Assembly: GCA_964654485.1 (NCBI GenBank)
Contig: CAZZJI010000004.1
Span: 1,104 to 65,103, forward strand
From: an uncultured Gammaproteobacteria bacterium
GTDB taxonomy: Bacteria > Pseudomonadota > Gammaproteobacteria > SG8-11
Length of the DNA stretch: 64,000 bases
Direction: 5' to 3'
In this document: piece by piece, positions 31,645-64,000 of the stretch
How positions within the stretch are numbered: the first letter of the stretch is position 1
Layout: every line of letters starts with the position of its first letter
Position numbers and translations under genes: made by a program
The notes under the pieces: model-generated
Told to the model about the DNA's origin: nothing
Databases searched by the model: none
What the model saw: the letters and a program-made list of their open reading frames with translations, nothing else

Positions 31645-31833
31645 TTACTCTGTAGTCTGGTTGCGTTTGTTAGCTCGAATCAAGCGAAACAAACGTTGCA
31701 CTAATGTGCGTCGGCGTCGACTCAGCAAAATCAATTCACCAACCATAAAGGCGGCCGTAACGCCATATGACCACCAAACGAAACTGGCGTAGCCACCCAT
31801 GTGTATAAACTCGGACCAACTGGACCAGTTCAT
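31645..31833 (-). CDS. ccmD: Heme exporter protein CcmD
   Basis: 62 aa single-TM protein located between ccmC and ccmE. Confidence 0.75.
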   Translation of the reverse strand: MNWSSWSEFIHMGGYASFVWWSYGVTAAFMVGELILLSRRRRTLVQRLFRLIRANKRNQTTE

Positions 31834-32627: not shown

Positions 32628-32659
32628 AAACTAATACTTCTCTATTATTCCGCGCTGAT

Positions 32660-44951: not shown

Positions 44952-45006
44952 CATTGTTTCATAACACCAAATTACAAAAATCAAACCCCAAACACCAAGG
45001 GAAATT

Positions 45007-45891: not shown

Positions 45892-45897
45892 ATTCGT

Positions 45898-46728: not shown

Positions 46729-46770
46729 AATTACTCGGCGTAGAAAACAAACCCTACGAAGACAGTAAAT

Positions 46771-47763: not shown

Positions 47764-49173
47764 TCAGGACGCATGAGCCAACTCAGGAAACGGCAAATAC
47801 TTTTTATTAAAAAACTGCATTGCCACTTCATCCGCAAAAAATCGACCACGTGGTGTCAAGAAAACTTTTTCATCATCTTCACCCAGCAAGCCCAATTTTT
47901 TCAGGCGAGCAATTGTGTCGCCAAAAAACGCTTCCACGGTCTCGCCTGTAGCCCGGTTAAATGATTGTTTATGTACAAAACTGTTTTTCAACGGCAAAAT
48001 AAATCGTCTGCGTATCTCATCATCGTGCGTTCTGACCATCCCGCGATTAACAGATACCTTACCCTCATCCACAAGCTGATAATAATTTTCTAAGTTATCA
48101 TCACCCACATTGAGCGAAAACACACCGCGCAGGTTCGACCAGGAAGAAACACCGACTCCTATTACATCGGAAAGATGGCAACATGAATCGCGCAAATAAT
48201 GCGATATATCTTTTTCCTTTTTGGCAAAAATTCGCGTTTGCCGCTCGTCAAATCCATTATCTCTTGAAATAATCAGGCCTAACATTTTCATAACATAGAT
48301 ATCATCAACTTGCGGAAATGTATTCGCTTTTTTATTATAAACTTTTAATATATTCCCCGGCCTGTCACCATGCGGTTTAATACGCAATCGATATAATTGA
48401 TAACCCTCAATATCCAAAGTAACAGCTTCTTGCATTGTCTCAACCCACTGCAGCAAATTTTGCTCAGGGTAACCATAGATAAGATCAATGAATATATTGT
48501 CGATACCCGCTTTACGAATCTGCTCTATGGCCTTCAACGTATCCGCATGAGTGTGAACGCGCCCCATGCGCGCCAATATTGAGTCATCAAATGATTGCAC
48601 ACCCATACTCAATCTATTTACACCGTAATCCTTCATTATTTTTAATTTTTCCAGACCATCTTCACCCAGTATTGTTGTTGGCTCCGGCTCCAGAGAAAAC
48701 TGGGTACAATTGGTTAAATCAAAATGAGTGGTAAATGCTTTTAAAAATCTCTCCATTTGTTTAGCAGATAAATAGGAGGGTGTACCACCGCCTATCAGTA
48801 CTGCATCCACCGGAATTTGCTCCATACCCAATTTTGAGCGGTATAAACCCATCTCTTTCTCCAAGTGGTCAAGATAATTATCCACTTCCTCCGGGCGACT
48901 TTTGGTTTTTGTAATCCAGTGGCAAAAAGTACAACGTGACGGACAAAACGGTATATGCACATAGGCAATCATAGGATTAGCGGGGCGTTCATTTATCTCG
49001 GCAAGAATTGGTTTTTCATCCATTTGCGGATACATTGTCAACGGCGGATAGCCGATAACAGGAAAAAATTTCCCGTCTGTAGGCAGAATGCCAGATGTTT
49101 TTACCTTATCAAGGCCCAGTTCACCCAATTCCATCTTAGCTTTTTCAATCCAGTTTTGTACATCCATAATCAA
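47764..49173 (-). CDS. Radical SAM enzyme of the HemN-like family (oxygen-independent coproporphyrinogen oxidase/HemW/ChuW-like)
   Basis: 469 aa. It has the CPSRCTFC radical SAM cysteine triad inside YVHIPFCPSRCTFCHW, the GGGTPS motif, and a HemN-like C-terminal domain. It lies 20 nt downstream of the double-propeller gene. Confidence 0.75.
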   Translation of the reverse strand: MIMDVQNWIEKAKMELGELGLDKVKTSGILPTDGKFFPVIGYPPLTMYPQMDEKPILAEINERPANPMIAYVHIPFCPSRCTFCHWITKTKSRPEEVDNYLDHLEKEMGLYRSKLGMEQIPVDAVLIGGGTPSYLSAKQMERFLKAFTTHFDLTNCTQFSLEPEPTTILGEDGLEKLKIMKDYGVNRLSMGVQSFDDSILARMGRVHTHADTLKAIEQIRKAGIDNIFIDLIYGYPEQNLLQWVETMQEAVTLDIEGYQLYRLRIKPHGDRPGNILKVYNKKANTFPQVDDIYVMKMLGLIISRDNGFDERQTRIFAKKEKDISHYLRDSCCHLSDVIGVGVSSWSNLRGVFSLNVGDDNLENYYQLVDEGKVSVNRGMVRTHDDEIRRRFILPLKNSFVHKQSFNRATGETVEAFFGDTIARLKKLGLLGEDDEKVFLTPRGRFFADEVAMQFFNKKYLPFPELAHAS

Positions 49174-49192: not shown

Positions 49193-51310
49193 TTATTGCT
49201 TAATTTCGGACGTCATCACCAATGCGACTGGTTTCGGCCCGGTATTTATTTCACCCACACGCTGCAAGTCACCATTTACTTTATTTAATCTAAAAATCAT
49301 AATGTTTCTTGAACCTTCATTTATGACATAGACATAATCCCCTGCAGGGCCAATAACAATATCGACCGGATCTTTACCCACAATCACTTTTTTAGAATTC
49401 TTTTTTATCAACCCAGTGGTAGTATCTACCTGATAAATAGAGACAGAACCAGATCCTTTATTTACCACGTAAATAAAGGATCCATCATGCGTTAGAGCGA
49501 TAGACACCGGTTCTTTTTCTGTCATCGTCGACCCTTCCAAGCTACGTAAACCTCCAGACTGAACATGTATTTCATAAGCCGTCAGTGTATTTGATTCTGC
49601 AGAAACAACATATGCGTACCGTCCATTGGGGTCAATCGCCATCGCATTAGCTCCATTTTTTATTTCGACAGGTGAACCAAACTCACTTGCAATCACCAAA
49701 GGTCCATCGTCATAATAATTAAAAAATGAAATATCGTTTGTTAGCGCATTTATAATATACGAATTACGCGCAGACGGATGTAATAATAACTTACTAGGTT
49801 GGCGTTCTAGTTTATATGGGGACGCGTAATACAGCCCGGTTTGTTTTAGCTCCGTTAAAGAACCGTTAGTCGCATCTATTTCAAAAACAGACATCGTGTT
49901 CGATTTAGAATTTAATGTGTAGACATATCTCCCATTGTAATCAACTGCAATTGAGTGGGGCTGTTCGCCAGTTCGATATGGCGAACCAGCAATTTCCTTT
50001 AATTTGCCGTCACGTCGGTTAATCATAAAAGCGGAGATGGTGTTTGATTTTAAATTGGCTACATATAAAAATCGATTTAGTGGATCCAGAGCAAGGGATT
50101 CCGGTGCCAAACCAGTTTTTGCTTTGGCAATTGACTTAAGCGCCCCTGTTTTATTATTAACTTTATATACACTAACCGAATCTGAATCAAAATCGGCCAG
50201 GTAAGCAAAACGTGAGGAAAATTCTACTGGCTTATCACCCATAACAAATGCAATTGACCGGGGACCAGAACGTGCCATTGTGGTCTCACCGATAGACAAT
50301 ACACCCGTTTGCTGGTTCACGGAATAAACCGTGACATGATTACTATCATAATTTGTAACAAAGGCAAAATTCCCGCCCGACTCTACTTCTACTTGAACAT
50401 TCAGACTTCCTACATTGACAAACGGTGAACCGGGGATAGGCATTAACTCACCCGTGAGCATATCGATGGAGAAACCATATGTGCCGCCAAACCAGTTTGC
50501 AACATAGAGAAATTTCCCATTCGGATGAATGGTTAAACCAAAGGGGAATACCCCCTCGCCCAATGGCAAAATATGTTTTTCCAGCAAAGCGCCACTGTCA
50601 TTGTTTATTTCAAATACGATAATTTCCCTACTATTCCAACTGCTCACAAAGGCATACTTACCCGCAGAATGTACTTTTATATACTGCGGTGCGTCTCCTG
50701 CGATAAAGGGTGAACCAGGTATATTGCTCAGTTCACCCGTTGTGCTATTCACGCGATACCCAGACACAGTGTCATCGTTGATATTCGTCATATACACGAA
50801 TCGGTCAGAGGGATGAACCGCAACAGAACGCGGTAAATACCCGCCGGGATAAGGTGACCCCTTAACTAAACTTAATGCACCGGTCTGAGAATCAATTTCC
50901 ATTACAGCAACAGCGTTGGAATTTCTACCCGCGATATATAAATATTCCCCATCTTTGTCTAATGCTGACCAAAAAGGAGAAACCACTTGCGGATCAAAAG
51001 GCGAACCCGGGAGTTCTATCAATCTCCCGGTTGAATGATTAACGCTAAACGCAGAAACTTTCATTCCAGTCTGCTCAGTAACGTAAACAAAACGACCACT
51101 AGGGTGGGCAACAACAGATGAAGGAAATCTGCCGGTGTCCACATGACCATTGTGACGTAACCGACCGGTAACACTGTCTACTGTGTACATCGAAACAGTA
51201 CTGTCATAGGCGTTTACGACATAAGCAAATTTAGGCACCACTGCATTAGCGAGCTGATATTCAAACAACACCGACAGCAAAACAATACTAGATAAACTTG
51301 ATAATCGCAT
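49193..51310 (-). CDS. Secreted tandem (double) 7-bladed beta-propeller of the lactonase / YVTN-like family
   Basis: 705 aa with a signal peptide. It has about 14 repeats of the .Y(V/I).N..S..VSV(F/Y)..(D/N)..TG.L type (YVVNAYDSTVSMYTVDSVTGRL, LYIAGRNSNAVAVMEIDSQTGAL, LYVANLKSNTISAFMINRRDGKL and others). Confidence 0.7.
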   Translation of the reverse strand: MRLSSLSSIVLLSVLFEYQLANAVVPKFAYVVNAYDSTVSMYTVDSVTGRLRHNGHVDTGRFPSSVVAHPSGRFVYVTEQTGMKVSAFSVNHSTGRLIELPGSPFDPQVVSPFWSALDKDGEYLYIAGRNSNAVAVMEIDSQTGALSLVKGSPYPGGYLPRSVAVHPSDRFVYMTNINDDTVSGYRVNSTTGELSNIPGSPFIAGDAPQYIKVHSAGKYAFVSSWNSREIIVFEINNDSGALLEKHILPLGEGVFPFGLTIHPNGKFLYVANWFGGTYGFSIDMLTGELMPIPGSPFVNVGSLNVQVEVESGGNFAFVTNYDSNHVTVYSVNQQTGVLSIGETTMARSGPRSIAFVMGDKPVEFSSRFAYLADFDSDSVSVYKVNNKTGALKSIAKAKTGLAPESLALDPLNRFLYVANLKSNTISAFMINRRDGKLKEIAGSPYRTGEQPHSIAVDYNGRYVYTLNSKSNTMSVFEIDATNGSLTELKQTGLYYASPYKLERQPSKLLLHPSARNSYIINALTNDISFFNYYDDGPLVIASEFGSPVEIKNGANAMAIDPNGRYAYVVSAESNTLTAYEIHVQSGGLRSLEGSTMTEKEPVSIALTHDGSFIYVVNKGSGSVSIYQVDTTTGLIKKNSKKVIVGKDPVDIVIGPAGDYVYVINEGSRNIMIFRLNKVNGDLQRVGEINTGPKPVALVMTSEIKQ

Positions 51311-51466: not shown

Positions 51467-54265
51467 TTACGGCACATTAGTACACGCCTCACTACTCATC
51501 GCCATCCAAAACACACCCGTAGCCCCGTTACCTGGCGCTCCGACTGAACCACAATTGGCTACCGTCCAGTTACCACTGAGTGCAAAACTAGTGACCTTTA
51601 ATACAGCTCTATTATAATAGGGACCATTAAAATACCCTGCTCTACCATCACCTGCGGGACCATTTCGAACCTGGACGCCCGATCTGTTAAATCCACCTTC
51701 AAATCCAACGTCATTTAGATTGACAAGAAAAGCCTTGTTTTTCCAACCATGCGGGACTGCAATATGACATAAATTACAGCGAAAGTTTGACACAGCATTC
51801 GCATGAAAAGTATGTAAATTCTGCGTATTCGGCATACACATCATTCCACCGCCACCACCGCTCATACGACCGCCGCCCATGCCGCCGCCGCCCATGCCAC
51901 CGCCGCCCATCATACACATACCACCACCACCACCCAGTGAAAACCCACTATTTTGAGGAAAAGCCGGTGACGGATTGCCGTATTGATTATATCGATGGCA
52001 TTTAAAACATAAATGCGTTGGCTGGCCGATACCGGTTCCGGTTGTGCGTCCACCACTCCACGGACCTTTTAACAGAAAATCATTCTCTGAACCATGCGGT
52101 CCCCAGACACGTCCATCATCACCTGCACCACCACCGCCGGTATTGCCCGTTGGAACTGATGTGCCGTTGTTGGTATCAGAACCATGGCAATCCGTGCAAT
52201 ACATGGTTTGCACACCCACAGCCAGATTAAACGGTGAGGTCCAATTGAGTTGGTTTGCATCACGAATCGCAGGTGTTCTGCCGGTGGACCTAACAACCGG
52301 ATGCCAACTACGATGATTGTTTATAGCAAATGCAGCGCCAGCGCCACTGTTAGGGGCGGTGCCTTCACCCTGATGTTCGACAGGAGAATTATATTCGCTC
52401 GCCTGATTGGTGTACTGCGTCATTTCGTTAGTACCAGATGGGGTACCACCGACAAATGAACCCAACATCGGCGGTGTATTGCCATACGCATAATTTGAGT
52501 GACACTTAAAACAAACCTGGTACTCGCGTGTTACGTAAGGGCTGGAGGTACCATCGTCACCGGGTGGCGCATCAATCGGTGGGCTGCCTCTTTTAATCGC
52601 GAAAGTAATCTGCGCATTAGGAACAGCATTAAAATTGGGGCCTGCGTAAATGGGTTCGACGCCCCATATACCCCTTAAAACACCGGAAGCGACATTAGTA
52701 TGCATTCTAACACCTCCAACAACTGCAAGGTCCGCGTCATTATGCGGGTGTGTGCCCGCTGGACCGGGATTAGCTGGGTCAGCGTTAAATAAACGATTTT
52801 TGATCACGCGGTGCGGATTATGGCAATCGGTACATTCGGCATGTCGATTAGCCAAACGCGTTTGGCTCTCGATAAAATCTTTACCGGCCTGCGGGATGCC
52901 GGGTGCATCACCTATATTGTGAACCTCTTCTGGACTATTCACCCCGAGAGACTGGTCGTCGGTGGTAATCGGCATGCGTGTTGCCAATGTAGTAAAGTCA
53001 GTTTTAATATCCGGCACTTCTGTACCAAGACCTTGGGCGGTTAATGTATTACCATCTGATGAGTGACAGGCGTAACAAGTTTGTTCAATCGCAGGTCGGC
53101 CACCCTGTTTAACCAGGTAACCACCAACAGAAACAGTAGGTCCATCTGTGCCTTCGCGCGTCAGACGTCGTGCACCCTGTACAGTGTGAGTATCATGGCA
53201 TGCAAGACAAGCCGATTCCCATGTTCGTGTACCCAATGGGAATTCTCGTACATTGGCCGCCGCATCCGTGTATATCTCATCAGCGACATCAGGATTAGCA
53301 TGTGCAGAATCAACCCAACCTGCTTTGAGGTGACAGGCAATACAGATAATATCGGCGTTAGTTCCGACGGGTGTACCTGGATTAAACCCAACATCCGCAG
53401 GTCGAGTCGATTGCAATCGGCTCAAACGTAAAAACTTAATATTCTGCTCTAATGTATCATCTCGAATATGCGGATCATGGCAGGTATTACATTGAACCTG
53501 CCCTTGCCCACCAGAATCATCCTGTAGAGGAACGATAGGCGCTGGTTGCCCACGAACCCGGGTACCAAGATGTGACTCTACTGCCGGGTCACGCATTTCA
53601 CCGTCTGCTGCCGCGAGCGCACTATCATACGTCATCGAAATGGGGTGATCATTTGTCAAATCAGTGCCAAGAAAACGAGTAAAACCAGAAAGCCGCCCAC
53701 TGGGGCCTTCAGCGATGGCACCACCCGCAATGGTGCCCGTCATCGCTATATCCTCTGTGGTACCGATTCGATCAGTAAAACGACCTTCAAATACATTGAC
53801 CGCGCCCACAGCCATTGTGCCATCATGGCACGACAGACACAGTTTCGAGATACCTGTCGGTTGTTGTAATGGCTGGCCCGGGCCAATCGCCGAATCCAGC
53901 GATCCTGAACTATAGGTAGGATACTGCGCACCAGATAATTCGCGGTTCCACAATGGACCCTCACTTACCGTGCCACCATGCGGGGCATGGCAAAAAACAC
54001 AAATTTGATTTTCTGTTACTGCCGAGACAACTCGACTTGCCCCCCCAGGCAGTTTTGGAGCAAAATCCGCAGAAAAATTATGTTTGGTATTGGAAATGTC
54101 AGAGATTCGCGCTGCGTGCGCATCAATTGAAAAAGTGGGTACGATACAAATAGCCGCCGTATAGACTAAAATCGCAGTTAATAAAACCGGGAAATATCCA
54201 TTGAAATAAGCATTTAGCTTGGCGCCGCCATAGGAAGAACGACTAAAAATCTTGCACACCCTCAT
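51467..54265 (-). CDS. Giant 11-heme c-type cytochrome (doubled-CXXCH family N-terminus) with a Met/Gly-rich insert
   Basis: 932 aa with an N-terminal TM/signal segment and 11 CXXCH motifs (CVFCH, CLSCH, CNTCH, CIACH, CLACH, CYACH, CTDCH x2, CFKCH x2, CNLCH). The N-terminus shares the HNF...C.FCH.PH / LCLSCHDGT module with the pentaheme paralogs. The insert is GGGGGMCMMGGGGMGGGGMGGGRMSGGGGGMMCM. Confidence 0.85.
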   Translation of the reverse strand: MRVCKIFSRSSYGGAKLNAYFNGYFPVLLTAILVYTAAICIVPTFSIDAHAARISDISNTKHNFSADFAPKLPGGASRVVSAVTENQICVFCHAPHGGTVSEGPLWNRELSGAQYPTYSSGSLDSAIGPGQPLQQPTGISKLCLSCHDGTMAVGAVNVFEGRFTDRIGTTEDIAMTGTIAGGAIAEGPSGRLSGFTRFLGTDLTNDHPISMTYDSALAAADGEMRDPAVESHLGTRVRGQPAPIVPLQDDSGGQGQVQCNTCHDPHIRDDTLEQNIKFLRLSRLQSTRPADVGFNPGTPVGTNADIICIACHLKAGWVDSAHANPDVADEIYTDAAANVREFPLGTRTWESACLACHDTHTVQGARRLTREGTDGPTVSVGGYLVKQGGRPAIEQTCYACHSSDGNTLTAQGLGTEVPDIKTDFTTLATRMPITTDDQSLGVNSPEEVHNIGDAPGIPQAGKDFIESQTRLANRHAECTDCHNPHRVIKNRLFNADPANPGPAGTHPHNDADLAVVGGVRMHTNVASGVLRGIWGVEPIYAGPNFNAVPNAQITFAIKRGSPPIDAPPGDDGTSSPYVTREYQVCFKCHSNYAYGNTPPMLGSFVGGTPSGTNEMTQYTNQASEYNSPVEHQGEGTAPNSGAGAAFAINNHRSWHPVVRSTGRTPAIRDANQLNWTSPFNLAVGVQTMYCTDCHGSDTNNGTSVPTGNTGGGGAGDDGRVWGPHGSENDFLLKGPWSGGRTTGTGIGQPTHLCFKCHRYNQYGNPSPAFPQNSGFSLGGGGGMCMMGGGGMGGGGMGGGRMSGGGGGMMCMPNTQNLHTFHANAVSNFRCNLCHIAVPHGWKNKAFLVNLNDVGFEGGFNRSGVQVRNGPAGDGRAGYFNGPYYNRAVLKVTSFALSGNWTVANCGSVGAPGNGATGVFWMAMSSEACTNVP
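51836..51934. repeat. Imperfect 15-bp tandem repeat (catgccgccgccgcc-type units) that encodes the Met/Gly-rich insert of the 11-heme cytochrome
   Basis: Read directly on the plus strand: ...catacgaccgccgcccatgccgccgccgcccatgccaccgccgcccatcat... Confidence 0.75.
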
Positions 54266-54556: not shown

Positions 54557-55654
54557 TCATCCTGGATTATTCAAATATTGTAAAACCACAATACGTCCGT
54601 TGAACATATCTGCAACATAAATACGGTCTTGGGAATCAGACCACACACCTGCTGGCAGGTAAAATTGGCCTATACCCGAACCTGTTCCACCAACCGGAAG
54701 CAGAAATTCTCCCGAATTATTATATACTAGCAAATAATCATAGTAGGATTCTACAACGTAAATAAGGCCTTGATCATCGACCGAAATTCCCTTTGGTCGC
54801 AGCAAATCCCCTATATTTAAGCTACGTTTACCAAATTTACTAACAAAATCCCCGTCCTTATCAAAAATTTGGATCCGCGCATTCATAGAATCAGTCACAT
54901 ACAGTTGCCCCTTATAATAACTGATAAAAGTAGGGAAATTAAACTCACCGGAGCGAACGCCGCGCTGCCCGATGACACTGAGCAGTTCACCGGAATCATC
55001 AAATATCTTTATATTGTGGGCGTGGGTATCTGAGACATAGATACGACCAAATCGCGCGTCTCGAGCCAGACCCGTCGGCCGTTTAAGAAGCCCTCTACCG
55101 AATTGTCCTAACGGTATTCCGTTGCTATCCAACCTAACGACGACGCCTAGTTCAGCATCCGCAACATAAACCTCACCGTCTTTGCCTGGTACGATGCCGA
55201 TTGGCGCAAGAAAATTGCTGCCATCTTCTGAATCAGCCTTTTCCCAGATATTCAACTCGCCCAGTTTATCATCAAATACAAATACGGCCTGCCGACTAAT
55301 GTCTGTTACATAAATACGTTTGCGCTTTTCATCAACAAAACCAGTTTGCGGCCGTTGTAAAACAACTTTTTGAGACGGCTGTGAATCTATGCCAACAAAC
55401 CACTTTACAAACCGCATAAAGACACCGTCCTCTTCGGGCTTTTTATAAAAATTATTTTCCCCGGTCAACTGCCCTATATATTTATAGCGCGGCATTTCCG
55501 GTTCGGACGGCCATACCTTGGAATCATCAACTCGATAACGTAATTCACCCCGTGTATCCGCACAACTGGAGAGAAAAACTGTAAAAACAAGAAAAATGAG
55601 TAGCGAGGAAATTCGTTTATTTAACATTATTCTTGTCACAAATAGTTTATACAA
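54557..55654 (-). CDS. NHL-repeat six-bladed beta-propeller lipoprotein
   Basis: 365 aa. The lipobox is LSSCADT. The blades are IYVTDISRQAVFVFD, VYVADAELGVVVRLD, IYVSDTHAHNIKIFD, LYVTDSMNARIQIFD, IYVVESYYDYLLVYN and IYVADMFNGRIVVLQ. Confidence 0.85.
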   Translation of the reverse strand: MYKLFVTRIMLNKRISSLLIFLVFTVFLSSCADTRGELRYRVDDSKVWPSEPEMPRYKYIGQLTGENNFYKKPEEDGVFMRFVKWFVGIDSQPSQKVVLQRPQTGFVDEKRKRIYVTDISRQAVFVFDDKLGELNIWEKADSEDGSNFLAPIGIVPGKDGEVYVADAELGVVVRLDSNGIPLGQFGRGLLKRPTGLARDARFGRIYVSDTHAHNIKIFDDSGELLSVIGQRGVRSGEFNFPTFISYYKGQLYVTDSMNARIQIFDKDGDFVSKFGKRSLNIGDLLRPKGISVDDQGLIYVVESYYDYLLVYNNSGEFLLPVGGTGSGIGQFYLPAGVWSDSQDRIYVADMFNGRIVVLQYLNNPG

Positions 55655-55705
55655 AGCGTTTTTGTAAAAGTTGTAATATCAAATCCATAACAAGATAAAC
55701 GAGCG

Positions 55706-56824
55706 TTACTGAACTTTAAAAAGATTCTGATCTAATCCGTCTTCCGGAACCACATCGAAAACCTGCACCCGTCTATTTAAGCTATCAGCAACATATAATT
55801 GCTGCTCTTTTGACATCCACATATCAGTAATCGATCGAAAACGACCTGGCGCTGAACCGCTACCCCCTAGCGTCGCGATGAGTCTGATATCATCATAAAC
55901 TCTGATTGTGTTATCGGATTTATCGCTAACATAGACACGCTGTTCCTTATCCAATGCAATCGCGGTTGGCCAGATCAAATCGCCTTCACCCAGACTAAAT
56001 CTGAATCGTCCGGCTGCGCCAGGATCCAATCCCAATTCTTGCACGGGTAACTCAAGACGGTCAGCTATAAAAATACTATTACTTCTTCCTTTCGCTATTG
56101 CAGTAATCGCACGAAATTTTCCTGGTCCCGTTCCACGTGATCCAACGGCACTTAATGGAATACCTAATTTGCTAAATATCACTACGTGACTGAAACTACC
56201 ATCGGCCACATACACTTGACCCGTTAAATCATCAACCATAACATCGATTGGCCGCGATAAATTTACCAGATCACTGTACTGGCGAATTAAATTGCCCAAT
56301 TCATCAAAATACAAAACACGCTTGCCAACTGGGTCCGTTATATAAAAACTCAAATCGGATTCAACGTAAATACTCGTCGGCTCACCTTTAAGCTGCTGGC
56401 CAGCGACACCGAGAACTTCTATCGTTTCGTCAACAGTATTATATCGATAAATAGAAGAGTCACCGCCATCAACGATGTAAAGAAAATTACCGTAACCACC
56501 AACCGCGACGGGTTTTATAAATTTAACTTGCTGACCATCACCACCAACAATAATGCGAGTAAATTCGCCAACCGCACCGTCCAGCTTTAACTTACCACCG
56601 CGTATAATACCTGATGGTCTCAAGACTTCCGGCTCATCACTGCGTTTAAAACGAAGATTTGGCGACGTAGCTGCTGCTGCGGATCCGTCCTCAGATGACT
56701 GTTCACCATCTGTAACTGCTTTTTTAAATTCCGCTAAAGTACAACCAGTAGTTGCCCCAATGAACAAAAAAATTAAACTGGCAATAACGATCAGCAACGG
56801 CGTCAACGTACGTCCAGTTAACAT
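55706..56824 (-). CDS. NHL-repeat beta-propeller lipoprotein. The probable start is the Met at about 56824; the ORF-track start at 56893 overlaps the upstream gene.
   Basis: The lipobox is LFIGATTGC. The blades are LYIVDGGDSSIYRYN, FYITDPVGKRVLYFD, VYVADGSFSHVVIFS, IFIADRLELPVQ, VYVSDKSDNTIRVYD and LYVADSLNRRVQVFD. Confidence 0.8.
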   Translation of the reverse strand: MLTGRTLTPLLIVIASLIFLFIGATTGCTLAEFKKAVTDGEQSSEDGSAAAATSPNLRFKRSDEPEVLRPSGIIRGGKLKLDGAVGEFTRIIVGGDGQQVKFIKPVAVGGYGNFLYIVDGGDSSIYRYNTVDETIEVLGVAGQQLKGEPTSIYVESDLSFYITDPVGKRVLYFDELGNLIRQYSDLVNLSRPIDVMVDDLTGQVYVADGSFSHVVIFSKLGIPLSAVGSRGTGPGKFRAITAIAKGRSNSIFIADRLELPVQELGLDPGAAGRFRFSLGEGDLIWPTAIALDKEQRVYVSDKSDNTIRVYDDIRLIATLGGSGSAPGRFRSITDMWMSKEQQLYVADSLNRRVQVFDVVPEDGLDQNLFKVQ

Positions 56825-56829
56825 TATCC

Positions 56830-56870
56830 TGGTTAGCGAAGACCTACGCCTGATTAGCGAAGACCTACGC
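56830..56870. repeat. 20-bp tandem duplication (ttagcgaagacctacgc x2) covering the stop codon of the triheme cytochrome gene and the 5' UTR of the NHL gene
   Basis: Read directly as ggttagcgaagacctacgcctgattagcgaagacctacgctttcg. The second copy contains the TAA stop of the 56854-57495 gene. Confidence 0.8.
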
Positions 56871-57495
56871 TTTCGCGCGGAACACTGTGACATCGATTAC
56901 ACTCCAATGGAGGAAAGGCGACTTTGCCATGGCACACACCACAATATTCACCTTCAATTATTGCCGCCATAGTGACAAAATTACCGCCACGTTGCGGTAA
57001 AAATATTCCAGGATGGCAGTTTTTGCATGTGAGCCATTTAGTATGCGGTAAATGAGGAAATCGAACATAAGGCATAGACGCGGTATTTCGAAAAATAACA
57101 TCAAAATCCACTGAATGCATTTTCTCTTCACCAGTGATGCCGGTGCGCGGTGAAATCAGGCCTTTGTTCAGTGTTTCTACCCAATTTATGACACCACGTT
57201 TATCACGCGGGAAATTAGCCATCGCTTCAGCTGGCGGTTGCAAGATCTTAACTGCATCATTTGTTGGATCATGCACACCATCTTCAGCGATCGAAACGAC
57301 ATCCCCATGTAATTGAAAATGACCCGTGCCTTCTTCGCCAATGGCCGGGCCAAATACAAACATACACACTGTAAAAAACAATGTTGATATATACCTATAT
57401 ACAACCATACCCTTTCTCGCGCCCATTAATTCGACTTCATTCACCCATCGTGTTGTATAAAATCTTTTTGCCCTTTTACTATATATGCCATACAC
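56854..57495 (-). CDS. Small triheme c-type cytochrome, secreted (paralog family A)
   Basis: 213 aa with a signal peptide. The heme motifs are CKNCHPGIFLPQR, CGVCHGKVAFP and CNRCHS. The HTKWLTC..CHP..F.PQR..N..TMAAI..GE.CGVCHGKV.FP...C..CHS pattern is shared with the genes at 59613 and 60321. Confidence 0.85.
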   Translation of the reverse strand: MYGIYSKRAKRFYTTRWVNEVELMGARKGMVVYRYISTLFFTVCMFVFGPAIGEEGTGHFQLHGDVVSIAEDGVHDPTNDAVKILQPPAEAMANFPRDKRGVINWVETLNKGLISPRTGITGEEKMHSVDFDVIFRNTASMPYVRFPHLPHTKWLTCKNCHPGIFLPQRGGNFVTMAAIIEGEYCGVCHGKVAFPPLECNRCHSVPRESVGLR

Positions 57496-57621
57496 CTTAT
57501 ATTATATACCTTTTTCTAATTATCAGCATCCAATCAACGCTTATGTCGAAAAAACGCAAAAAATCCAGTTTTGCCATGGAAAGATTTTTTAGATCCCGCC
57601 CTTGACTTTCCCCGATAGGAA

Positions 57622-59190
57622 CTACTGACTTACCCCTGCTATGCGCAATGCACGCCTGACTTGGGTTGTAGCCGACAACATCATCGCAATAGCTGTTGGA
57701 AAATCACCTTGCTTTGCTTTTTTAATTGCATCATCGCGCTGACTTCTTCCTTTCACAACGAATCCATCCATAAGTTTCACGGCACCCGGCGCTGGTTTTT
57801 TCCTGGCAATGGCGACAGGTACTAATTCTTCATAACCGGCAAATCGCTTTAATTCATATTGATATTCTTCTTCTGCCGTTTCAAAATTCAGATCATATAC
57901 AATTGTTTGGGAATCAAGCATAACATTGATCGCACTAGTCACGATATTTTCTGCTTTTTCTAACAAAGGAATCGCCTTTAAGTATTTACGTGTATCAGCA
58001 AATGTCTTCGCTTCTTGTAGCAAAGATGTGACTTCTTTTTTGTCGTAATCAACCACTGCCTGTTTGCCACGTGTTTTAACCGTTTGATCCTTGCTTATCT
58101 TATGCGATTGCTCAAAGTTCTTTACAGAATCAAGCAATTCCATATACCGGGCATTTCTTTCCTCTAAGACCTCTTCGCTTGGCACTAACCTGGATGACGT
58201 ACCAATCAAGCGTAATACATCATCTGCAAAAGCCAACGCTTTCTCATTATCACCGGAAGAAAGGTGCTTGCGCGCTTTACCCATTTTTTCCCTAGCCGAA
58301 TTCAACATATTTTTTGCTTCTTTATTATTACTTGCATCTACGCGCTTGGTACCTTTAGACACAAGCATCATGTCAGCAAACGTCATTTTCTGCTTAAGCT
58401 TTGCGATAGAAACTTTCGCTTTTGTTGCTTTCGAGGACTTACCTGCACTTGCTGTAGAAATCTTAACACTCGCAATTAATTTATTGATTTTCGCTTCAGA
58501 TGCATCCTTGTTGACGACAAATATCTTGCCCCCCATTGCGCTGTGGTTTTGACATTGATAATAAATGACATCCGGCATCTTATTGTCAGGCGTTATTTCT
58601 ATTATACCTTTGTAGGTAAACTGCCCCTTAATCCCATCTATAACCACACCGCCACCCCAGCCTACTGGACTCGTGGAAAAATAAACGTCATGCAATACAT
58701 CAGTTCGGACATCAAATTGATAGCGTTCACCACGTCGCATGGCGATTGTTTTTCCTTGCACATCATCCAATGAAAAACCTAATATATGCCCTTTGCCAAA
58801 TGAAGGATGTGATTCATTTTTTTCCGCCACGGTGACTATATAATAATTCGGATCCAATTTTTTGGACGACACATCAGGTTTTTTTGCTTCCGCTGGCTTA
58901 TCAACGGGCGCGGGTTGAATCTCTGAAGTGACATCGGCGGGCATTTCTGTTACTTCGGGAATAGTCGTAATCGGCAACGGCTGCACCATTACAATGGGTT
59001 CATCCGGGGAAACATCATCTTCCTTCGCTTTTGCCTGTTGTTCTTTTTCTTTAGCTGAGGGTTCAACCGGAGCTTCAATGATAGTTGCTGACTGCTCGGC
59101 GGGCATCTGTTCGTTTTTATCGAGCGAGCCGCACGCGGGCACAAAAAGAAAGACTATGAAAAAAAGGGTAAATTTAATGTTCGAGTTCAT
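57622..59190 (-). CDS. Lipoprotein with an amicyanin/plastocyanin-like cupredoxin domain (predicted type 1 copper site) plus a long C-terminal helical domain of unknown function
   Basis: 522 aa. The lipobox is FVPACGS. A Pro/Glu-rich linker follows. The cupredoxin signature is GKGHILGF...YYQCQNHSAMGGKIFVV, with Cys-x2-His-x2-Met spacing as in amicyanin. Confidence 0.55.
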   Translation of the reverse strand: MNSNIKFTLFFIVFLFVPACGSLDKNEQMPAEQSATIIEAPVEPSAKEKEQQAKAKEDDVSPDEPIVMVQPLPITTIPEVTEMPADVTSEIQPAPVDKPAEAKKPDVSSKKLDPNYYIVTVAEKNESHPSFGKGHILGFSLDDVQGKTIAMRRGERYQFDVRTDVLHDVYFSTSPVGWGGGVVIDGIKGQFTYKGIIEITPDNKMPDVIYYQCQNHSAMGGKIFVVNKDASEAKINKLIASVKISTASAGKSSKATKAKVSIAKLKQKMTFADMMLVSKGTKRVDASNNKEAKNMLNSAREKMGKARKHLSSGDNEKALAFADDVLRLIGTSSRLVPSEEVLEERNARYMELLDSVKNFEQSHKISKDQTVKTRGKQAVVDYDKKEVTSLLQEAKTFADTRKYLKAIPLLEKAENIVTSAINVMLDSQTIVYDLNFETAEEEYQYELKRFAGYEELVPVAIARKKPAPGAVKLMDGFVVKGRSQRDDAIKKAKQGDFPTAIAMMLSATTQVRRALRIAGVSQ

Positions 59191-59513
59191 GGCTAATCAC
59201 CTGAGAAAATTGATCTAACGCGGGTTCATGATTGGCTTAAGCGTAGGACCATCCTGAACCTGACTACCTTATCCAGACCATATAAATATCCAGACCCATA
59301 TAAATATAATTCAGTGCATTCTCTATCTCTCCTGTTCGCACTGCCAACTTATCTTGTTATCGGCAAAAAATCGAATTGATTGATTGATACTTTCCTCTAA
59401 TAATGCATTAAAAATTGCTCTGTTGTTGCTCTATGTAAAAGTGCAACCGTCAAAACAAACCAATACTTTTAAAATGGAATTTATCAACCAAAAACTATTT
59501 ACCTCAGTTAATT

Positions 59514-59555
59514 AAGCTTAAAAATACAAACGGTGCAGGTTAAATCACCTGCACC
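59514..59555 (-). terminator. Rho-independent terminator downstream of the triheme cytochrome gene at 59613-60305
   Basis: On the minus strand a perfect 9-bp stem (GGTGCAGGT gattta ACCTGCACC) is followed by gtttgtatttttaag. Confidence 0.7.
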
Positions 59556-59612
59556 GCTGAGTTTTCTGCACTTCTTTCATCTGATAAAAGTACAGCTAGG
59601 TAAAGGTACCAA

Positions 59613-60305
59613 TTACCTCCAGGGGTTTTTAACACTCGCCTGACTCAAAGGTGGTTTCCAATTTTTTGGTTTGGGTTTGGAATGGCATTTTTTGCACGAC
59701 TTAGTGGTAACCGGAAAAGACACTTTACCGTGACACACGCCGCATTTTTCACCCAAAAGTATTGCAGACATCGTTATCTGGTTCGCATTTCTTTGTGGAA
59801 TGAAAATCTTTGGGTGGCAATTGGAACAATGCAACCATTGTGTATGCGGTTTGTGTGGAAAAACCACATCCGGCATGGATGCTTTTACTTCACGCACAAT
59901 GTCTAAATCCATAATAAGTGGCTCAACGGTAGGATCTATACGATCATAGCGAGGCTTCAAATAGCCCTTGTCGAGTGATTGCACCCAATCGACGTAATTA
60001 CCAAATGGCGTCGTTGGTAAGCCTTTGTAAGATATTTTCGGCGGTTGCAGCACATGCGTACCTTCATTAGCCGGATCATGAATACCGTCCTCCGCTGGCG
60101 GTGCATTTTTTTCCTTATCCTTTTTAAGCAGGCGATTAAAAACATTCGCCTTGGTCACATTGCCGCTTTGACCTTGAACGGGCTTTAATTTCATCGTTTT
60201 CTTTGTTGCACCGACTTCAGCCGCGTAAACATTCGCCATAGCAAATGTTAAACCAAACGCACAAACGGTACAGGCAGCCGCTAACAACCTATTGATTTTA
60301 TTCAT
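59613..60305 (-). CDS. Small triheme c-type cytochrome, secreted (paralog family A)
   Basis: 230 aa with a signal peptide. The heme motifs are CSNCHPKIFIPQR, CGVCHGKVSFP and CKKCHS. Confidence 0.85.
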   Translation of the reverse strand: MNKINRLLAAACTVCAFGLTFAMANVYAAEVGATKKTMKLKPVQGQSGNVTKANVFNRLLKKDKEKNAPPAEDGIHDPANEGTHVLQPPKISYKGLPTTPFGNYVDWVQSLDKGYLKPRYDRIDPTVEPLIMDLDIVREVKASMPDVVFPHKPHTQWLHCSNCHPKIFIPQRNANQITMSAILLGEKCGVCHGKVSFPVTTKSCKKCHSKPKPKNWKPPLSQASVKNPWR

Positions 60306-60320
60306 TTTTATTTCATCCCC

Positions 60321-60764
60321 TTATTGCGCGCTCTTTACACCACCTGGCAGCGCTTTATACTGTGGCGCGACTAAACGTTGAATCGTACTCCCGTGGATCT
60401 GTGTCGGTGTTCCAGGAATGCCCGAGTGACACATTCCACAGTTTTCCACGGACCAGGCAATTTCACCGTTATGACAGGCGCCGCAAAATTGGCCGTCAAT
60501 AATTTTAGCCATCGTGATCTTGTTTCCACCTGCTTTAAATTTAAACCCGAGATCGGCATGGCATACTTTGCAGCGAAATCTAATACGATGATACCAATGC
60601 GGAAATACGGCGGGTCGCATACCTGCGGCATCAGCATAATTATTTATTACTACATCCGCGTACTCTGCCTGTGCAGATTGTGGGATCATTATGACGCTAA
60701 GACTGCTTATTAAAGCAAATAAAATTGCCTTCCATTTCACGAGATATTCCAAAAGTGATCTCAT
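60321..60764 (-). CDS. Small triheme c-type cytochrome, secreted (shorter member of paralog family A)
   Basis: 147 aa with a signal peptide. The heme motifs are CKVCHADLGF, CGACHNGEIAW and CGMCHSG. Confidence 0.85.
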   Translation of the reverse strand: MRSLLEYLVKWKAILFALISSLSVIMIPQSAQAEYADVVINNYADAAGMRPAVFPHWYHRIRFRCKVCHADLGFKFKAGGNKITMAKIIDGQFCGACHNGEIAWSVENCGMCHSGIPGTPTQIHGSTIQRLVAPQYKALPGGVKSAQ

Positions 60765-60875
60765 ATCAACCTAACTCCCCTATTATTTATTAGAATTTAA
60801 CCAAATACTATAATTTTTCTTTACCATATTACAAGGGTAAAGCGCATTTTCTAATACCTGTGATCTTACACGACT

Positions 60876-62765
60876 CTAGAAGCTTCGTGTAGCCGAAAAG
60901 TTAACACCAAGCGTCCTTTCTCCTTCAGGAGCTTCAGTTATTCGGATATTAAGCTTGGTTGATAATAAACCAATTGCGTAGGAAAATGAATTTACCCAGG
61001 TTAGATTCCCTCTTTGTGAATCTCCATCTGCTAACAACCTTTCTTGTCTTAATGTCGAGGCATAAGTTAACGCAAATACACCAAATAACCGACTATGGCG
61101 GTAGGCAAACCGGATAGAAGCAGATTCTTCTGTATCTGAGGCCCCAGGTTCGATCGTCAAGGGATTGTCAGTTTTAGAAGCTTGATAATTAAAATTTCCG
61201 GATGCTGAACTAAGACGATTTATCCCCTGATTTCGGGCTAGTGAGAGTGAAGCTAATTGAAATACTACCCCGTCCTCTTCGAGTGTCCGTGAGTCAGAAA
61301 CAGCAACGTTGAAAATTGTGTTGCCACCCCAACCCAGGTGATTCACGCTGGTATTAAAACTTATAGAATGTGCTTTAGTCAGCTCGTCTGTTTCTGTATC
61401 CTCCGTGGATAAAGTCGAATCATTGTCATCTGGAAAACGTTTTGAAACGGCTAAATTTTCTGAAAAACCAAAATTTAAATTTCCACTGTCGAATAGCCAG
61501 GATCTGCTCGCGGCATGACCAATTGACACACTGGCGCTTTGACTACTGGTTTTCGTGTCCTCTACGGGGGGGACTGCAGCCGGATTGCCGTCCAGTTTAC
61601 TATTTGCATTACTGACACTACCGCTCAAGTTCCAGTTATAAAAAAAATCAAAAATGGTCGTCGGGGAGGAAAAAAAACCGATTGTTCCAATTTCGGAGGA
61701 ATTAAGTGACTGCCTACCTTCAGATTCACTTGAATTAGCATTAATCGTTAAATTACCACGTATTTGGCGAGAAAATATATACGACATCGTTAAACCGATG
61801 CCTACCGCACTAGTCTCGACACTGTCCCGAACGCTATTGTCGGTCGTCGTTTTGGAAAAACGCGCACCACCTGACACGGAATAGGGTTTATGCTCAGGTC
61901 GCCAAGAGGCGCTTGTGGACACCTGATTAACCGACGACTCACTACCAGAACCGCCCACCGATTCCGATTTAGACGTGGAATGGCTGAATAATGAAGTAAT
62001 CCCCATTTCTGCACTTGGTAAATACCCGTGCGTCGCGGTTAACGATAAGCTTGTGGAATTATTACCAACATCCTGTTGTTCTGTATCAATATAACTACTA
62101 TCAATACTATAACGCTGTTTAGCCCAGGATCGATTAACGCGTAACCCGGCAATGCTGGATAGAAAATTGCTAAACAATGACTCGAAATCAGATCGATTAT
62201 AGAAAAAATTGATATGCGTACGATCATATGTTGTATACGCCTGTGATATCCCTATGCGTCTGGTCTTGGTTATCAGCGTCGTGGATAACAAACCTTCCTC
62301 TGCATTTGATATACTTTCTGACTCATTTCGACTAAGCGCATAGGTTAATCGAAAAGGAAAGCGACTTAGTGGGAAAACCGCAAACGCCAGATTAACAGTA
62401 TTGGATGTAAAATTACTCTCAGGCGCGTTACTACTGGTGCTCTCACTTGTTGCCAGCCCGAAACCCAACCCTGCTGACATAGTGGCAAACCACGGTCGCC
62501 AAATAGCGCTGTTACCAGCGACATTAACCCTGATCAAATTAACTTCTGATTCCCGATTATTGGTTTTATTAAAACTGTATGTATAACCTATACTTCCGCT
62601 TAAATTTAAACCGTAGGGATCATAAAATTCAGCTCGAGCGGACGTTTGCCCAATCAAGAGCAAGGACAGCCCCAAAAAGCACAATTGAAAAAATTTCGAA
62701 TTCCTCAGTACGGGCTTGTTTACTATCACTACTCCAAACACTCCCCAAAGCGGTTGCCAATACAC
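60876..62765 (-). CDS. Large putative outer-membrane beta-barrel protein (porin-like), secreted
   Basis: 629 aa with a signal peptide (FLGLSLLLIGQTSARA). It has an amphipathic alternating pattern, is rich in Ser, Thr, Asn and Gly, and has the C-terminal aromatic residue (…ATRSF) typical of OMP beta-barrels. Confidence 0.55.
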   Translation of the reverse strand: MYWQPLWGVFGVVIVNKPVLRNSKFFQLCFLGLSLLLIGQTSARAEFYDPYGLNLSGSIGYTYSFNKTNNRESEVNLIRVNVAGNSAIWRPWFATMSAGLGFGLATSESTSSNAPESNFTSNTVNLAFAVFPLSRFPFRLTYALSRNESESISNAEEGLLSTTLITKTRRIGISQAYTTYDRTHINFFYNRSDFESLFSNFLSSIAGLRVNRSWAKQRYSIDSSYIDTEQQDVGNNSTSLSLTATHGYLPSAEMGITSLFSHSTSKSESVGGSGSESSVNQVSTSASWRPEHKPYSVSGGARFSKTTTDNSVRDSVETSAVGIGLTMSYIFSRQIRGNLTINANSSESEGRQSLNSSEIGTIGFFSSPTTIFDFFYNWNLSGSVSNANSKLDGNPAAVPPVEDTKTSSQSASVSIGHAASRSWLFDSGNLNFGFSENLAVSKRFPDDNDSTLSTEDTETDELTKAHSISFNTSVNHLGWGGNTIFNVAVSDSRTLEEDGVVFQLASLSLARNQGINRLSSASGNFNYQASKTDNPLTIEPGASDTEESASIRFAYRHSRLFGVFALTYASTLRQERLLADGDSQRGNLTWVNSFSYAIGLLSTKLNIRITEAPEGERTLGVNFSATRSF

Positions 62766-63186
62766 AAAGTCCTTTTAAAAAAGCAAAATTAAAACTGTGC
62801 CTTGCCGCTTACATTCATTTTATCTTTGGGTCTTTTGAACAGCCAACTTTCTTATATAGATAATAAATACAGTTACTCTAAATAATACGTCGCCAGAACA
62901 AAGTATACGTAACCCGGAACACCCTCAAAAACAAACCCGGGAATGATCAAGAATCTGTCCCAGGAAACTTAATATTGGCTTATTAGTTAATATTTATATA
63001 CTAATTCCACACCAACTAATCGTAAGAAAAAACATCAAATAAGTAAAAAAATCTTCGCATACAAATGATTACAATACATATGATTATTATATTAAATTAC
63101 ATAATATAGCAACGCACAACAACATGCTCGATAAATAAACAGTTCGGCGAATAAATGAGTGCGATATTAAAAAGTCGTCACTTAGG

Positions 63187-64000
63187 CTACTTCTGCACAA
63201 CCTTATATACTGACTTATCCACATCTATTTTTGTCTCAGATCTGAGTTTTTTTATCAAATCCACCCAGGCTTTTTGCCCACGCTCGCGCTTAACAAGGCC
63301 TATTACGGTATCTTTAACCCGCTCATAGCTGTTGATCGTGATTGCTATACGTTCATCAAGCCTGAAAATAGCCACGCCCTGCAGGATAACAACAGGCTCT
63401 GAGACATCTCCAGGATCCATAATATCGATAATTTCTTGTGCTGGCTTAGCGAGCATACCCTTATGTATGTAACCCATATCTCCGCCTTGTGGAGCCGAAT
63501 CATCACCGGAGTGAATTCGCGCCATTTCAGCAAAGTCGGCACCATTTCTTAATTGCGCCACCAATTCATTGGCTTGTTCCGTCGTATCTCGCCATACCTG
63601 ACTGCCTGACGAAGGATCTACTTTTAATAAAATTGTGAAAACGCGCAATTGCTCTGGAATCGTAAATTTATCAGGATTATTTTCAAAGTGAGCCTGAAGA
63701 TCTTTTTCTTGCGGAGGACCGACTTCCTTAACCTTTTTCTCCAGTAGCTTAATCAAGCTATCATGTTCATATTCTTCCCGAATGCCAGGTAAAAGTAGAT
63801 CTCTGTTCTGCTCCCAATTTTTGTCGTTTTCTTTTTTTCTTTTCGCTTCAAATCTCTCAATCTTATTATCAACCACCTCTTTATCTGGTTTAATACCCTG
63901 TCGTTTCGCTTCCCGAACCAATAAAACCCGGTTGATATATTCTTGTCCTACCTGTTCACGAAATTGTTCCATTTCTTTGTCAGGCACTTTTGCGTGAAAA
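63187..64000 (-). CDS. SurA/PpiD-like periplasmic chaperone with a parvulin-type PPIase domain. The N-terminus runs off the window end.
   Basis: The parvulin signature is GGDMGYIHKGMLAKPAQEIIDIMDPGDVSEPVVILQGVAIFRLDER. The frame stays open past the GTG at 63985-63987 to position 64000. Confidence 0.65.
   Translation of the reverse strand, partial: FHAKVPDKEMEQFREQVGQEYINRVLLVREAKRQGIKPDKEVVDNKIERFEAKRKKENDKNWEQNRDLLLPGIREEYEHDSLIKLLEKKVKEVGPPQEKDLQAHFENNPDKFTIPEQLRVFTILLKVDPSSGSQVWRDTTEQANELVAQLRNGADFAEMARIHSGDDSAPQGGDMGYIHKGMLAKPAQEIIDIMDPGDVSEPVVILQGVAIFRLDERIAITINSYERVKDTVIGLVKRERGQKAWVDLIKKLRSETKIDVDKSVYKVVQK

Follow-up and report, generated by a model that had tools for sequence, protein, structure and literature searches.

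In a stretch of 64,000 nucleotides of DNA (the window) from an uncultured Gammaproteobacteria bacterium of the SG8-11 lineage, a Gly/Met-rich insert (MCMMGGGGMGGGGMGGGRMSGGGGGMMCM) lies between the last two haem motifs of an 11-haem c-type cytochrome and is bracketed by two non-haem cysteines, Cys784 and Cys810. We assign the host protein, of 932 residues, to UetJ, the cytochrome with 11 haems that the uet cluster encodes for electron uptake. UetJ and the uet cluster are already known from genomics and expression data; the papers searched do not describe the Gly/Met loop. Comparison with related sequences argues for purifying selection on an uncharged Gly+Met tract in which Met is used rather than Ile, Leu or Val, Ala is tolerated, and length and register drift. 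As for function, the single most likely mechanism in our judgement is that the loop captures a soft metal, Cu(I), and would feed it to the Cys pair beside the terminal haems. We give this reading a probability of only about 0.35, and several rival explanations are weighed below.

The uet (undecahaem electron transfer) cluster, uetABCDEFGHIJ, was described from Candidatus Tenderia electrophaga and related orders, and UetJ was there predicted to lie outside the cell as an undecahaem 'haem wire' (bioRxiv 10.1101/2022.05.06.490989). Reports of uet and UetJ also exist for some Gallionella. Translation of the open reading frame (ORF) in the window gives 11 CXXCH motifs, at residues 89, 143, 259, 308, 353, 397, 478, 585, 690, 753 and 830, and the same number is found in 119 of the 120 closest homologues (10 in the remaining one). 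Pfam recognizes only multihaem-cytochrome domains in the protein (Paired_CXXCH_1 and Cytochrome_C7), and tblastn gave 49-50% identity over residues 49-932 to loci L041 and L051, from Candidatus Tenderia sp. metagenome-assembled genomes (MAGs). Tenderia UetJ likewise has 11 CXXCH motifs in about 900 residues, and its gene stands at the end of the same gene order: a peptidyl-prolyl isomerase (PPIase), the barrel, a trihaem c7 cytochrome, UetF, a second trihaem c7 cytochrome and two NHL proteins. This synteny is kept in the 60 or more loci that we retrieved, and the order agrees with that in the Tenderiales preprint. Together the motif count, the gene order and the homology to Candidatus Tenderia lead us to identify the 932-residue protein as the UetJ orthologue of the uet cluster of a Tenderiales-like gammaproteobacterium. 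UetJ is a putative cell-surface undecahaem cytochrome, proposed to be the outermost component of the uet electron-uptake system. When species-representative genomes were scanned, at least 577 of them proved to have a UetJ relative; most belong to uncultured Gammaproteobacteria (Chromatiales, Ectothiorhodospiraceae, Thiohalomonadales and Candidatus Tenderia) and some to Alphaproteobacteria. One homologue, P0032 (54% identical), carries the NCBI name 'Kaarinaea lacus', a Nostocales cyanobacterium; because every other UetJ relative is proteobacterial, this contig probably comes from a co-cultured or contaminating gammaproteobacterium in that assembly.

The original prediction, made from the DNA letters alone, had placed a Met/Gly-rich, Cys-flanked insert between the 10th and 11th CXXCH motifs of an 11-haem cytochrome, and the ORF translation bears this out. 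The range then given, 51836-51934, spans the insert and the run of five glycines before it and omits the insert's last Met codon. An imperfect 15-bp tandem array had also been described, and Tandem Repeats Finder (TRF) recovers it as four units (Table 1). With at most two mismatches allowed, the unit pattern ATGGGYGGYGGYGGY has eight matches in the window against 1.38 expected, a number reached in 0 of 100 shuffles; seven of the eight lie inside uetJ, six of these at 51848-51937. G+C content is 66% in the tract, 50% in the uetJ gene and 43% in the window. Antisense to the tract runs a 72-residue His/Arg/Pro-rich ORF (…HRHHRSYDRRPCRRRPCHRRP…, 51787-52005, plus strand), which arises simply because the Gly/Met repeat is read on the opposite strand; it should not be annotated as a gene.

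In order to place the insert within the family, we compared the segment between the last two haem motifs in 190 unique sequences, taken from the closest database homologues and from genome loci, and in a further set of about 80 UetJ-family representatives at 50% identity. The frame of the loop is conserved (CFKCH-x-Y-x-QY ... SGF ... variable segment ... N-x-H-x-x-H ... FRCNLCH). At its opening, S773 and G774 are invariant in an alignment of 37 sequences and at least 90% conserved in one of 120. At its end, N816, H818 and H821 are invariant in the 120 sequences, and H818 and H821 are presumed to be distal ligands of the last haems. Beyond the loop, Cys905 is invariant and Cys928 at least 90% conserved in the UetJ alignments; the two presumably form a structural disulfide.

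The number of cysteines in the loop differs between lineages. Alphaproteobacterial and distant UetJ proteins have a short loop with no Cys (SGFGGSKDENLH), and Tenderia-type and many other gammaproteobacterial UetJ proteins have a single loop Cys (e.g. GCLPFKLTNLH). Tenderia-type UetJ thus differs from the window protein in its short single-Cys loop (SGFSRSSGGGSCLAVPDYNLH), which has no Gly/Met tract. The two-Cys state belongs to a nearly monophyletic clade, with four state changes on a neighbour-joining (NJ) tree that, like the parsimony counts made on it, is approximate. At the position of Cys810 (Cys2), 99% of the one-Cys relatives and 94% of the two-Cys relatives have Cys, always five or six residues before N-x-H, and in the 120-sequence alignment Cys810 is at least 90% conserved. 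At the position of Cys784 (Cys1), 73% of the two-Cys relatives have Cys, against 0% of those with one Cys or none. Because Cys810 aligns across the one-Cys and two-Cys sets, and the one-Cys proteins carry an odd number of non-haem Cys (66 of 68 relatives), the alignments indicate that Cys810 is the older residue, an unpaired thiol in one-Cys relatives, and that Cys784 is a later addition.

At the Cys784/Cys810 site, a vicinal CC or C-x(2-5)-C, including CxxC and CxxxC, occurs independently in distant family representatives. A vicinal pair directly follows SGF (e.g. SGFCCDGRGNLH) in P0139, P0141, P0151, P0166, P0183, P0191, P0230, P0271 and locus L073, and SGFSCxxxC occurs in other distant representatives at the loop position of window 51836-51940. 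From these pairs we conclude that the Cys site is recurrent at this loop position and that a Cys pair there arose repeatedly with differing spacings as a recurrent theme of the family. The residue that follows Cys2 in the 108 two-Cys sequences is Met (53), Gly (37), Leu (8), Ser (7), Phe (2) or Ala (1). His never follows it (0 of 108), which rules out an extra haem c motif of the CXnCH type.

When the insert was sought in homologues, as had been suggested originally, Gly/Met tracts were found in the same loop in 73 of 196 UetJ relatives, at one or more of four sub-positions: before SGF, from SGF to Cys1, between the two Cys and after Cys2. Parsimony on the NJ tree gives 6, 4, 8 and 22 state changes, respectively. 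The length between the two Cys (n = 108) has its mode at 3 residues (49 sequences), followed by 6 (15), 2 (14) and 1 (8), with a tail of 12-48. Short segments of 1-5 residues are about 85% G+M (CGMMC, CMGMC, CGGGC, CMGC and CMC), and of the positions flanking the Cys pair, three out of four hold Met in at least half of the sequences, the figure before Cys1 being 30%. Since the short forms are already so rich in G+M and Met stands at the Cys flanks, the sequences indicate that the long tracts amplify a pre-existing G/M seed between the Cys. The starting point was an older, very short Cys-x(1-3)-Cys element with little but Gly and Met inside, from which the tract grew as ATG-(GGY)n units were duplicated in frame or added by slippage.

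Length variation on a shorter time scale was followed within 90%-identity clusters, in which proteins 89-99% identical differ by an indel in the tract and by few or no indels elsewhere. The indels are GG, GGM and GGGGM, all in frame. In cluster c3 the variants are MGG--M, MGG---G and MGGGGM; two proteins 98.7% identical differ by GG within a (GGT)6 run, and another member has an extra GGGGM unit. No change in tract length was seen in cluster c2 (97.5% identical) or among the three contigs that carry the exact window protein. Because the repeats are short and imperfect and the changes always in frame, tract length changes by slow in-frame drift on an evolutionary time scale and not as a contingency switch. 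A phase-variable switch was considered and rejected, since units of 3 and 15 nt keep the frame and the four units are decayed (82% matches), the longest exact direct repeat in the tract being 14 nt at an offset of 15. A contingency locus of long perfect repeats was rejected as well, with four units at 82% and (GGT)5 as the longest perfect run. The original expectation that the array would vary by slipped-strand mispairing therefore stands as far as the indels between close relatives go; decayed repeats, a constant frame and an unchanged cluster c2 do not point to a hypermutable array.

The composition of the tract was examined in 34 long inter-Cys segments comprising 588 residues. These segments are bounded by Cys, so composition played no part in their choice. 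They consist of G 390, M 155, A 32, N 3 and V 2, with R, S, P, F, T and D once each (93% G+M). The transition neighbours of GGY (Asp, Ser) and of ATG (Ile, Val, Thr) are almost absent, and Ala, a transversion neighbour, is tolerated. In 8 of 8 loci examined the Gly codons within the tracts mix GGC, GGT and GGA, and this synonymous mixture without loss of Gly or Met argues for purifying selection on composition. The MCMM...MMCM architecture furthermore persists among proteins that are only 59-75% identical. The window tract contains the sole Arg and the sole Ser among the 588 residues, R800 (CGT) and S802 (AGC) at 51860-51868 on the minus strand, each one base change from a Gly codon. They may be recent single-base changes or may reflect relaxed constraint in the window lineage.

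Per-residue confidence was taken from an AlphaFold2 model built with 120 homologues (mean predicted local distance difference test, pLDDT, 74.2; predicted template modelling score 0.78), which was used for that purpose only; an earlier run with 37 sequences (mean pLDDT 44.7) was discarded. Residues 781-810 have pLDDT values of 44-50, falling below 50 at 786-789, 791-794 and 798-808, and the flanks are at 76-89. N816-H821 lies in a short predicted helix (817-824) just before haem motif 11. The model fits a tract that would be a disordered loop emerging from an ordered scaffold. A Foldseek search against the PDB returned no match for the C-terminal region of the model and matched only the N-terminal, OmcE-like domain. 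That domain, residues about 50-270 (53456-54118, minus strand), is homologous to OmcE, the nanowire subunit of Geobacter sulfurreducens, with a profile match to structure 7tfs_A at E=1.7e-28 and a Foldseek match of the model to 7tfs at E=4.6e-6 and a template modelling score of 0.64 on the target. A second filament-like match to the N-terminus is 9yuq, a 'putative multiheme cytochrome c' of 16 chains. The likeness to OmcE bears on the speculation in the Tenderiales preprint that Uet cytochromes might polymerise.

Cu(I) capture is ranked first because the loop of the window protein, which is extracytoplasmic, gathers a cluster of soft sulfur ligands, two Cys and about eight Met thioethers, and the best-known role of such a cluster is the binding of Cu(I) or Ag(I). 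The tract would act as a flexible, multivalent thioether 'brush' around a thiol or dithiol site by the terminal haems, with a soft metal, Cu(I) first, as its likeliest ligand. The ion would be caught dynamically by a number of Met sites of low affinity and handed to the Cys pair near haems 10 and 11, where it could donate or accept an electron or remain as a cofactor. A parallel would be the Met-rich insert that covers the electron-entry copper in cuprous oxidases of the CueO type. For peptide sites of three Met, log K for Cu(I) is 5-6; binding by Met-rich domains is statistical and dynamic, the modest affinity of about three Met being amplified by multivalency (PMC11840665). The Met-rich inserts of CueO, CopA/PcoA and Ctr1 are likewise extracytoplasmic, flexible, poorly conserved in length and rich in Met thioethers, and in CueO the insert adjoins the copper centre at which electrons enter the redox chain. 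The UetJ tract differs from them in having no homology to them, 60-70% Gly, no His or Asp, a bracket of Cys and, in the window, a Met spacing that is mostly M-x4-M, and its host is a haem protein where that of the CueO type is a multicopper oxidase.

A precedent for copper in such a host is MccA, an octahaem sulfite reductase cited in PMC9250108 (after Hermann et al. 2015) as a multihaem c-type cytochrome that contains copper. MccA belongs to another fold and family, has a catalytic five-coordinate haem and lacks a Met-rich or Gly-rich loop; in UetJ no sign of an open haem coordination site was seen. The copper of MccA is ligated by a pair of cysteine thiolates close to a haem, which shows Cys-ligated copper by a haem c to be chemically feasible. 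Within the uet cluster itself, the UetF-like lipoprotein of 522 residues carries YYQCQNHSAMGG, and the pattern YYxC(R/Q)NHxxMGG is conserved in 44 related loci. Its C-x2-H-x2-M has the ligand spacing of small blue copper proteins, and the conserved pattern suggests a putative type-1 copper site in UetF. No cupredoxin match to this protein was found in Pfam, even at E up to 10, and no sequence match in the PDB. We counted the motif in the 44 loci as making a relevance of copper to the uet cluster plausible. The original prediction had invoked a cupredoxin and a copper-dependent FGE family nearby as fitting context. The UetF motif is indeed present; it occurs in clusters with and without the tract, and FGE genes stand beside tract-free uetJ genes, so neither speaks specifically for the loop as a binder of copper.

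Several observations weigh against Cu(I) capture. Searches of UetJ against Pfam and NCBIfam (E up to 1) found cytochrome domains only and no copper-protein family, and a PDB sequence search with the tract alone gave no match. The tract contains no His or Asp, and Asp occurs once among the 588 long inter-Cys residues. The MxxM/MGGM kind of motif that had been proposed is present as MGGM in relatives, and the MCMM and MMCM ends of the window tract contain MxM and MM; between these ends its Met residues are mostly spaced as M-x4-M, and homology to a copper family is lacking. The tract is absent from Tenderia-type and distant UetJ, so that the core function does not depend on it. No gene for copper homeostasis turned up among the window's annotated ORFs. 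Additionally, G/W or G/F tracts with a Met-free CxxC occur in P0009, P0019, P0024 and P0007, and poly-Gly with Phe or an extra Cys in P0021, P0038 and P0097; these Trp/Phe variants point to a generic flexible-plus-hydrophobic property. The approximate nature of the tree and of its counts is a further reason for caution. A stronger version of the copper proposal, that the UetJ of this clade acquired a thiolate/thioether copper site beside its terminal haems (Cys784/Cys810 with the Gly/Met capture loop), a haem-copper centre through which electrons would enter or leave the cell-surface wire, we regard as unlikely.

Almost as likely as copper capture, though still no better than a possibility in our estimate, is a flexible lid or tether that works without metal. 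Here the Cys pair would form a disulfide, possibly redox-switchable, that staples the base of the Gly-rich loop, and the sparse Met residues (elsewhere Trp/Phe) would serve as 'stickers' in weak hydrophobic contacts with a partner, for instance UetA, the double propeller encoded downstream, another UetJ or a solid surface. An inter-Cys spacing of 0-48 residues fits a staple more readily than a well-defined chelate, and the tract has W/F variants. Directly after Cys2, one-Cys relatives have a hydrophobic residue (C[LIV]) and two-Cys relatives have M, F or G. The predicted disorder of the tract agrees with this explanation, as do the conserved C905/C928 pair, which implies a disulfide-forming compartment, the OmcE-like N-terminal domain, which makes self-association conceivable, and the 705-residue propeller that is syntenic in the two-Cys clade only. 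The physics would resemble that of the Gly-Met tails of GroEL, which are conserved and of debated role; the (GGM)4M tail is made of Gly and Met only, is disordered and strictly prefers Met over other hydrophobics (PMC11978752, PMC12571646). GroEL tails differ in being cytoplasmic free C-termini that act on unfolded clients, with no homology to UetJ, a secreted cytochrome in which the tract forms an internal loop with a Cys at either end; the likeness is an analogy only. The Cys pair itself recalls the outer-membrane cytochromes MtrC, OmcA and UndA, whose conserved CX8C disulfide, of fixed spacing in a beta-barrel domain, is a proposed redox switch. Both are extra conserved Cys pairs in cell-surface multihaem cytochromes; that of UetJ has a spacing of 0-48, lies between two haem motifs and includes an older Cys that was once unpaired. 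The ancestrally unpaired state of Cys810 means that its original role was not a disulfide, and hydrophobicity alone hardly explains why Ile, Leu and Val, good stickers one mutation from ATG, are almost never used.

The same purity of composition bears on a functionless, tolerated low-complexity expansion, in which a permissive surface loop with a G/M seed and GC-rich codons expands and contracts by replication slippage and the purity reflects repeat homogenisation and not selection. The tract is present in only 2-3 of the about 80 representatives at 50% identity, its length is unconstrained (12-48 residues), gains and losses on the NJ tree are many, the seed composition already accounts for G and M, and the window tract carries the 'impurities' R800 and S802. 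We nevertheless consider this rather unlikely: the heterogeneity of Gly codons shows that homogenisation is too slow to remove point mutations, and still the non-synonymous neighbours D, S, V, R, I and T are nearly absent. G/M tracts moreover occur at four places in the loop, including the pre-SGF segment, which has no G/M seed in short forms, and MCMM...MMCM is kept across divergent proteins. Selection specific for Met would also be expected of a sacrificial antioxidant shield, in which surface Met and Cys by exposed, autoxidisable haems scavenge H2O2, HOCl or radicals and so protect the haem wire of an electron-uptake organism living as a microaerophile. Trp, which replaces Met in some lineages, is oxidisable too, a periplasmic methionine-rich peptide with methionine sulfoxide reductase offers a precedent (PMC4436054), and Tenderiales-type organisms respire O2 with cbb3 oxidases (bioRxiv 10.1101/2022.05.06.490989). 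Phe variants, however, are not oxidisable in like manner, the window tract has only about eight Met, no msrP/msrQ-like gene was seen among the annotated neighbours, and a surface-exposed protein is beyond the reach of periplasmic repair; a shield thus seems distinctly improbable. Finally, GC-rich low-complexity DNA is prone to assembly error, and long CX15CH motifs occur in MccA-type cytochromes, so that mis-assembly, mis-translation or a cryptic CXnCH haem motif had to be considered. The exact UetJ protein is found on three contigs from NCBI and Logan assemblies and is identical in all, dozens of independent MAGs have homologous tracts, the reading frame runs unbroken over the 932 residues, and Cys2 never precedes His. 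These observations refute the concern raised with the original prediction that the insert might be a low-complexity assembly artefact, and leave artefact as a whole next to no probability.

The other genes of the cluster and its surroundings are listed in Table 1. Compared with Tenderia, the window cluster is without the third trihaem gene between UetD and UetF, and downstream of uetJ it has propeller, HemN-like and FGE genes where Tenderia has ccsAB. The 705-residue double propeller is syntenic in 16 two-Cys loci and in 0 one-Cys or no-Cys loci, the sole neighbour that tracks the two-Cys clade; it may be a clade-specific partner or simply reflect shared ancestry. FGE paralogues follow uetJ also in L002, L015, L019 and L020, of which L015, L019 and L020 are tract-free one-Cys loci, and the HemN-like radical SAM gene stands beside uetJ in L001 and L003 only, among contigs that often end early. 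One of the FGE-sulfatase paralogues, at 43836-44951, has two CXXCH motifs. The target motif of FGE is CxPxR. Modification of the tract by these neighbours was considered and set aside, with the HemN-like gene rare, FGE genes beside tract-free uetJ and no CxPxR in the loop. Elsewhere in the window, a second cytochrome cluster (pentahaem, NHL propeller, pentahaem; 18247-21723, plus strand) is similar to what has been called the 'secondary c-type cytochrome cluster' in Tenderiales. The ORFs at 26565-33984 (minus strand) may form a Ccm cytochrome-maturation system, and there is a weak ResB-like match at 36327-37361.

Table 1. Positions in the window of uetJ, the parts of its tract and loop, and the neighbouring genes.
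Feature	Position	Strand	Basis or remark
uetJ orthologue, undecahaem c-type cytochrome, 932 aa, host of the tract	51467..54265	(-)	CXXCH motifs, Pfam, tblastn, synteny
Whole loop, haem motif 10 (CFKCH, aa 753) to motif 11 (CNLCH, aa 830-834)	51764..52009	(-)	hypervariable, 31-117 aa in family
S773-G774-F775, conserved anchor opening the variable part of the loop	51941..51949	(-)	
(GGT)5 run, GGGGG, aa 778-782, directly before the insert	51920..51934	(-)	TRF period 3, 5 copies, 100%
Gly/Met insert, aa 783-811	51833..51919	(-)	ORF translation
Cys784 (Cys1), non-haem, later-acquired of the pair	51914..51916	(-)	
Four imperfect 15-bp units	51851..51910	(-)	TRF period 15, 4.0 copies, 82% matches, score 85
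Unit 1			ATG GGC GGC GGT GGC
Unit 2			ATG GGC GGC GGC GGC
Unit 3			ATG GGC GGC GGT CGT
Unit 4			ATG AGC GGT GGT GGC, then GGT GGA
Cys810 (Cys2), non-haem, older of the pair, 5 residues before N816	51836..51838	(-)	
N816-L-H818-T-F-H821, invariant motif in predicted helix 817-824	51803..51820	(-)	
Cys905 and Cys928, C-terminal pair	51482..51553	(-)	
Rest of uet cluster, upstream of uetJ	54557..63987	(-)	Pfam, synteny, preprint gene order
PpiC-type PPIase	63187-63987	(-)	Pfam
629-aa protein at the position of the UetC beta-barrel (putative barrel)	60876-62765	(-)	position; without Pfam match
Trihaem c7-type cytochrome, first	59613-60305	(-)	Pfam
UetF-like lipoprotein, 522 aa, with C-x2-H-x2-M	57622-59190	(-)	position, motif
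Trihaem c7-type cytochrome, second	56854-57495	(-)	Pfam
Two NHL propellers	55706-56893 and 54557-55654	(-)	Pfam
705-aa protein, two lactonase-type 7-bladed propellers, directly downstream of uetJ	49193-51310	(-)	
HemN-like radical SAM protein adjoining the uet cluster	47764-49173	(-)	
Four paralogous FGE-sulfatase-domain proteins	43836-47700	both	

A search of the literature found no Met-rich tract described in multihaem cytochromes, in agreement with the original statement that no such embedding was known; the few papers on UetJ are silent on the loop, and the words methionine, glycine, disulfide and copper do not occur in the Tenderiales preprint (bioRxiv 10.1101/2022.05.06.490989). What is added here is a Gly/Met low-complexity segment whose host, a haem wire, is new for segments of this kind; its Cys bracket is unusual, and it is limited to a sub-clade. 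The UetJ tract is also a clean natural example of low-complexity sequence under compositional rather than positional selection.

The uet pathway is widespread and biochemically uncharacterised. A sulfur-rich disordered loop, set on a conserved thiol by the last haems, is a concrete and mutable candidate for donor contact or for a ligand site. If it binds no Cu(I), it would be the second case after the GroEL tails of a specifically maintained sequence of Gly and Met only, and would help to define the physics of such sequences. If it does bind Cu(I), the principle of Met-rich domains would extend from multicopper oxidases to haem wires and tie copper to extracellular electron transfer. With a haem-copper site of the kind considered above, the cell could oxidise Cu(I) or the surfaces of copper or iron-sulfide minerals, or the bound copper could be a contact redox centre for extracellular electron uptake. 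Overall, the loop points to the likely business end of an uncharacterised electron-uptake cytochrome.

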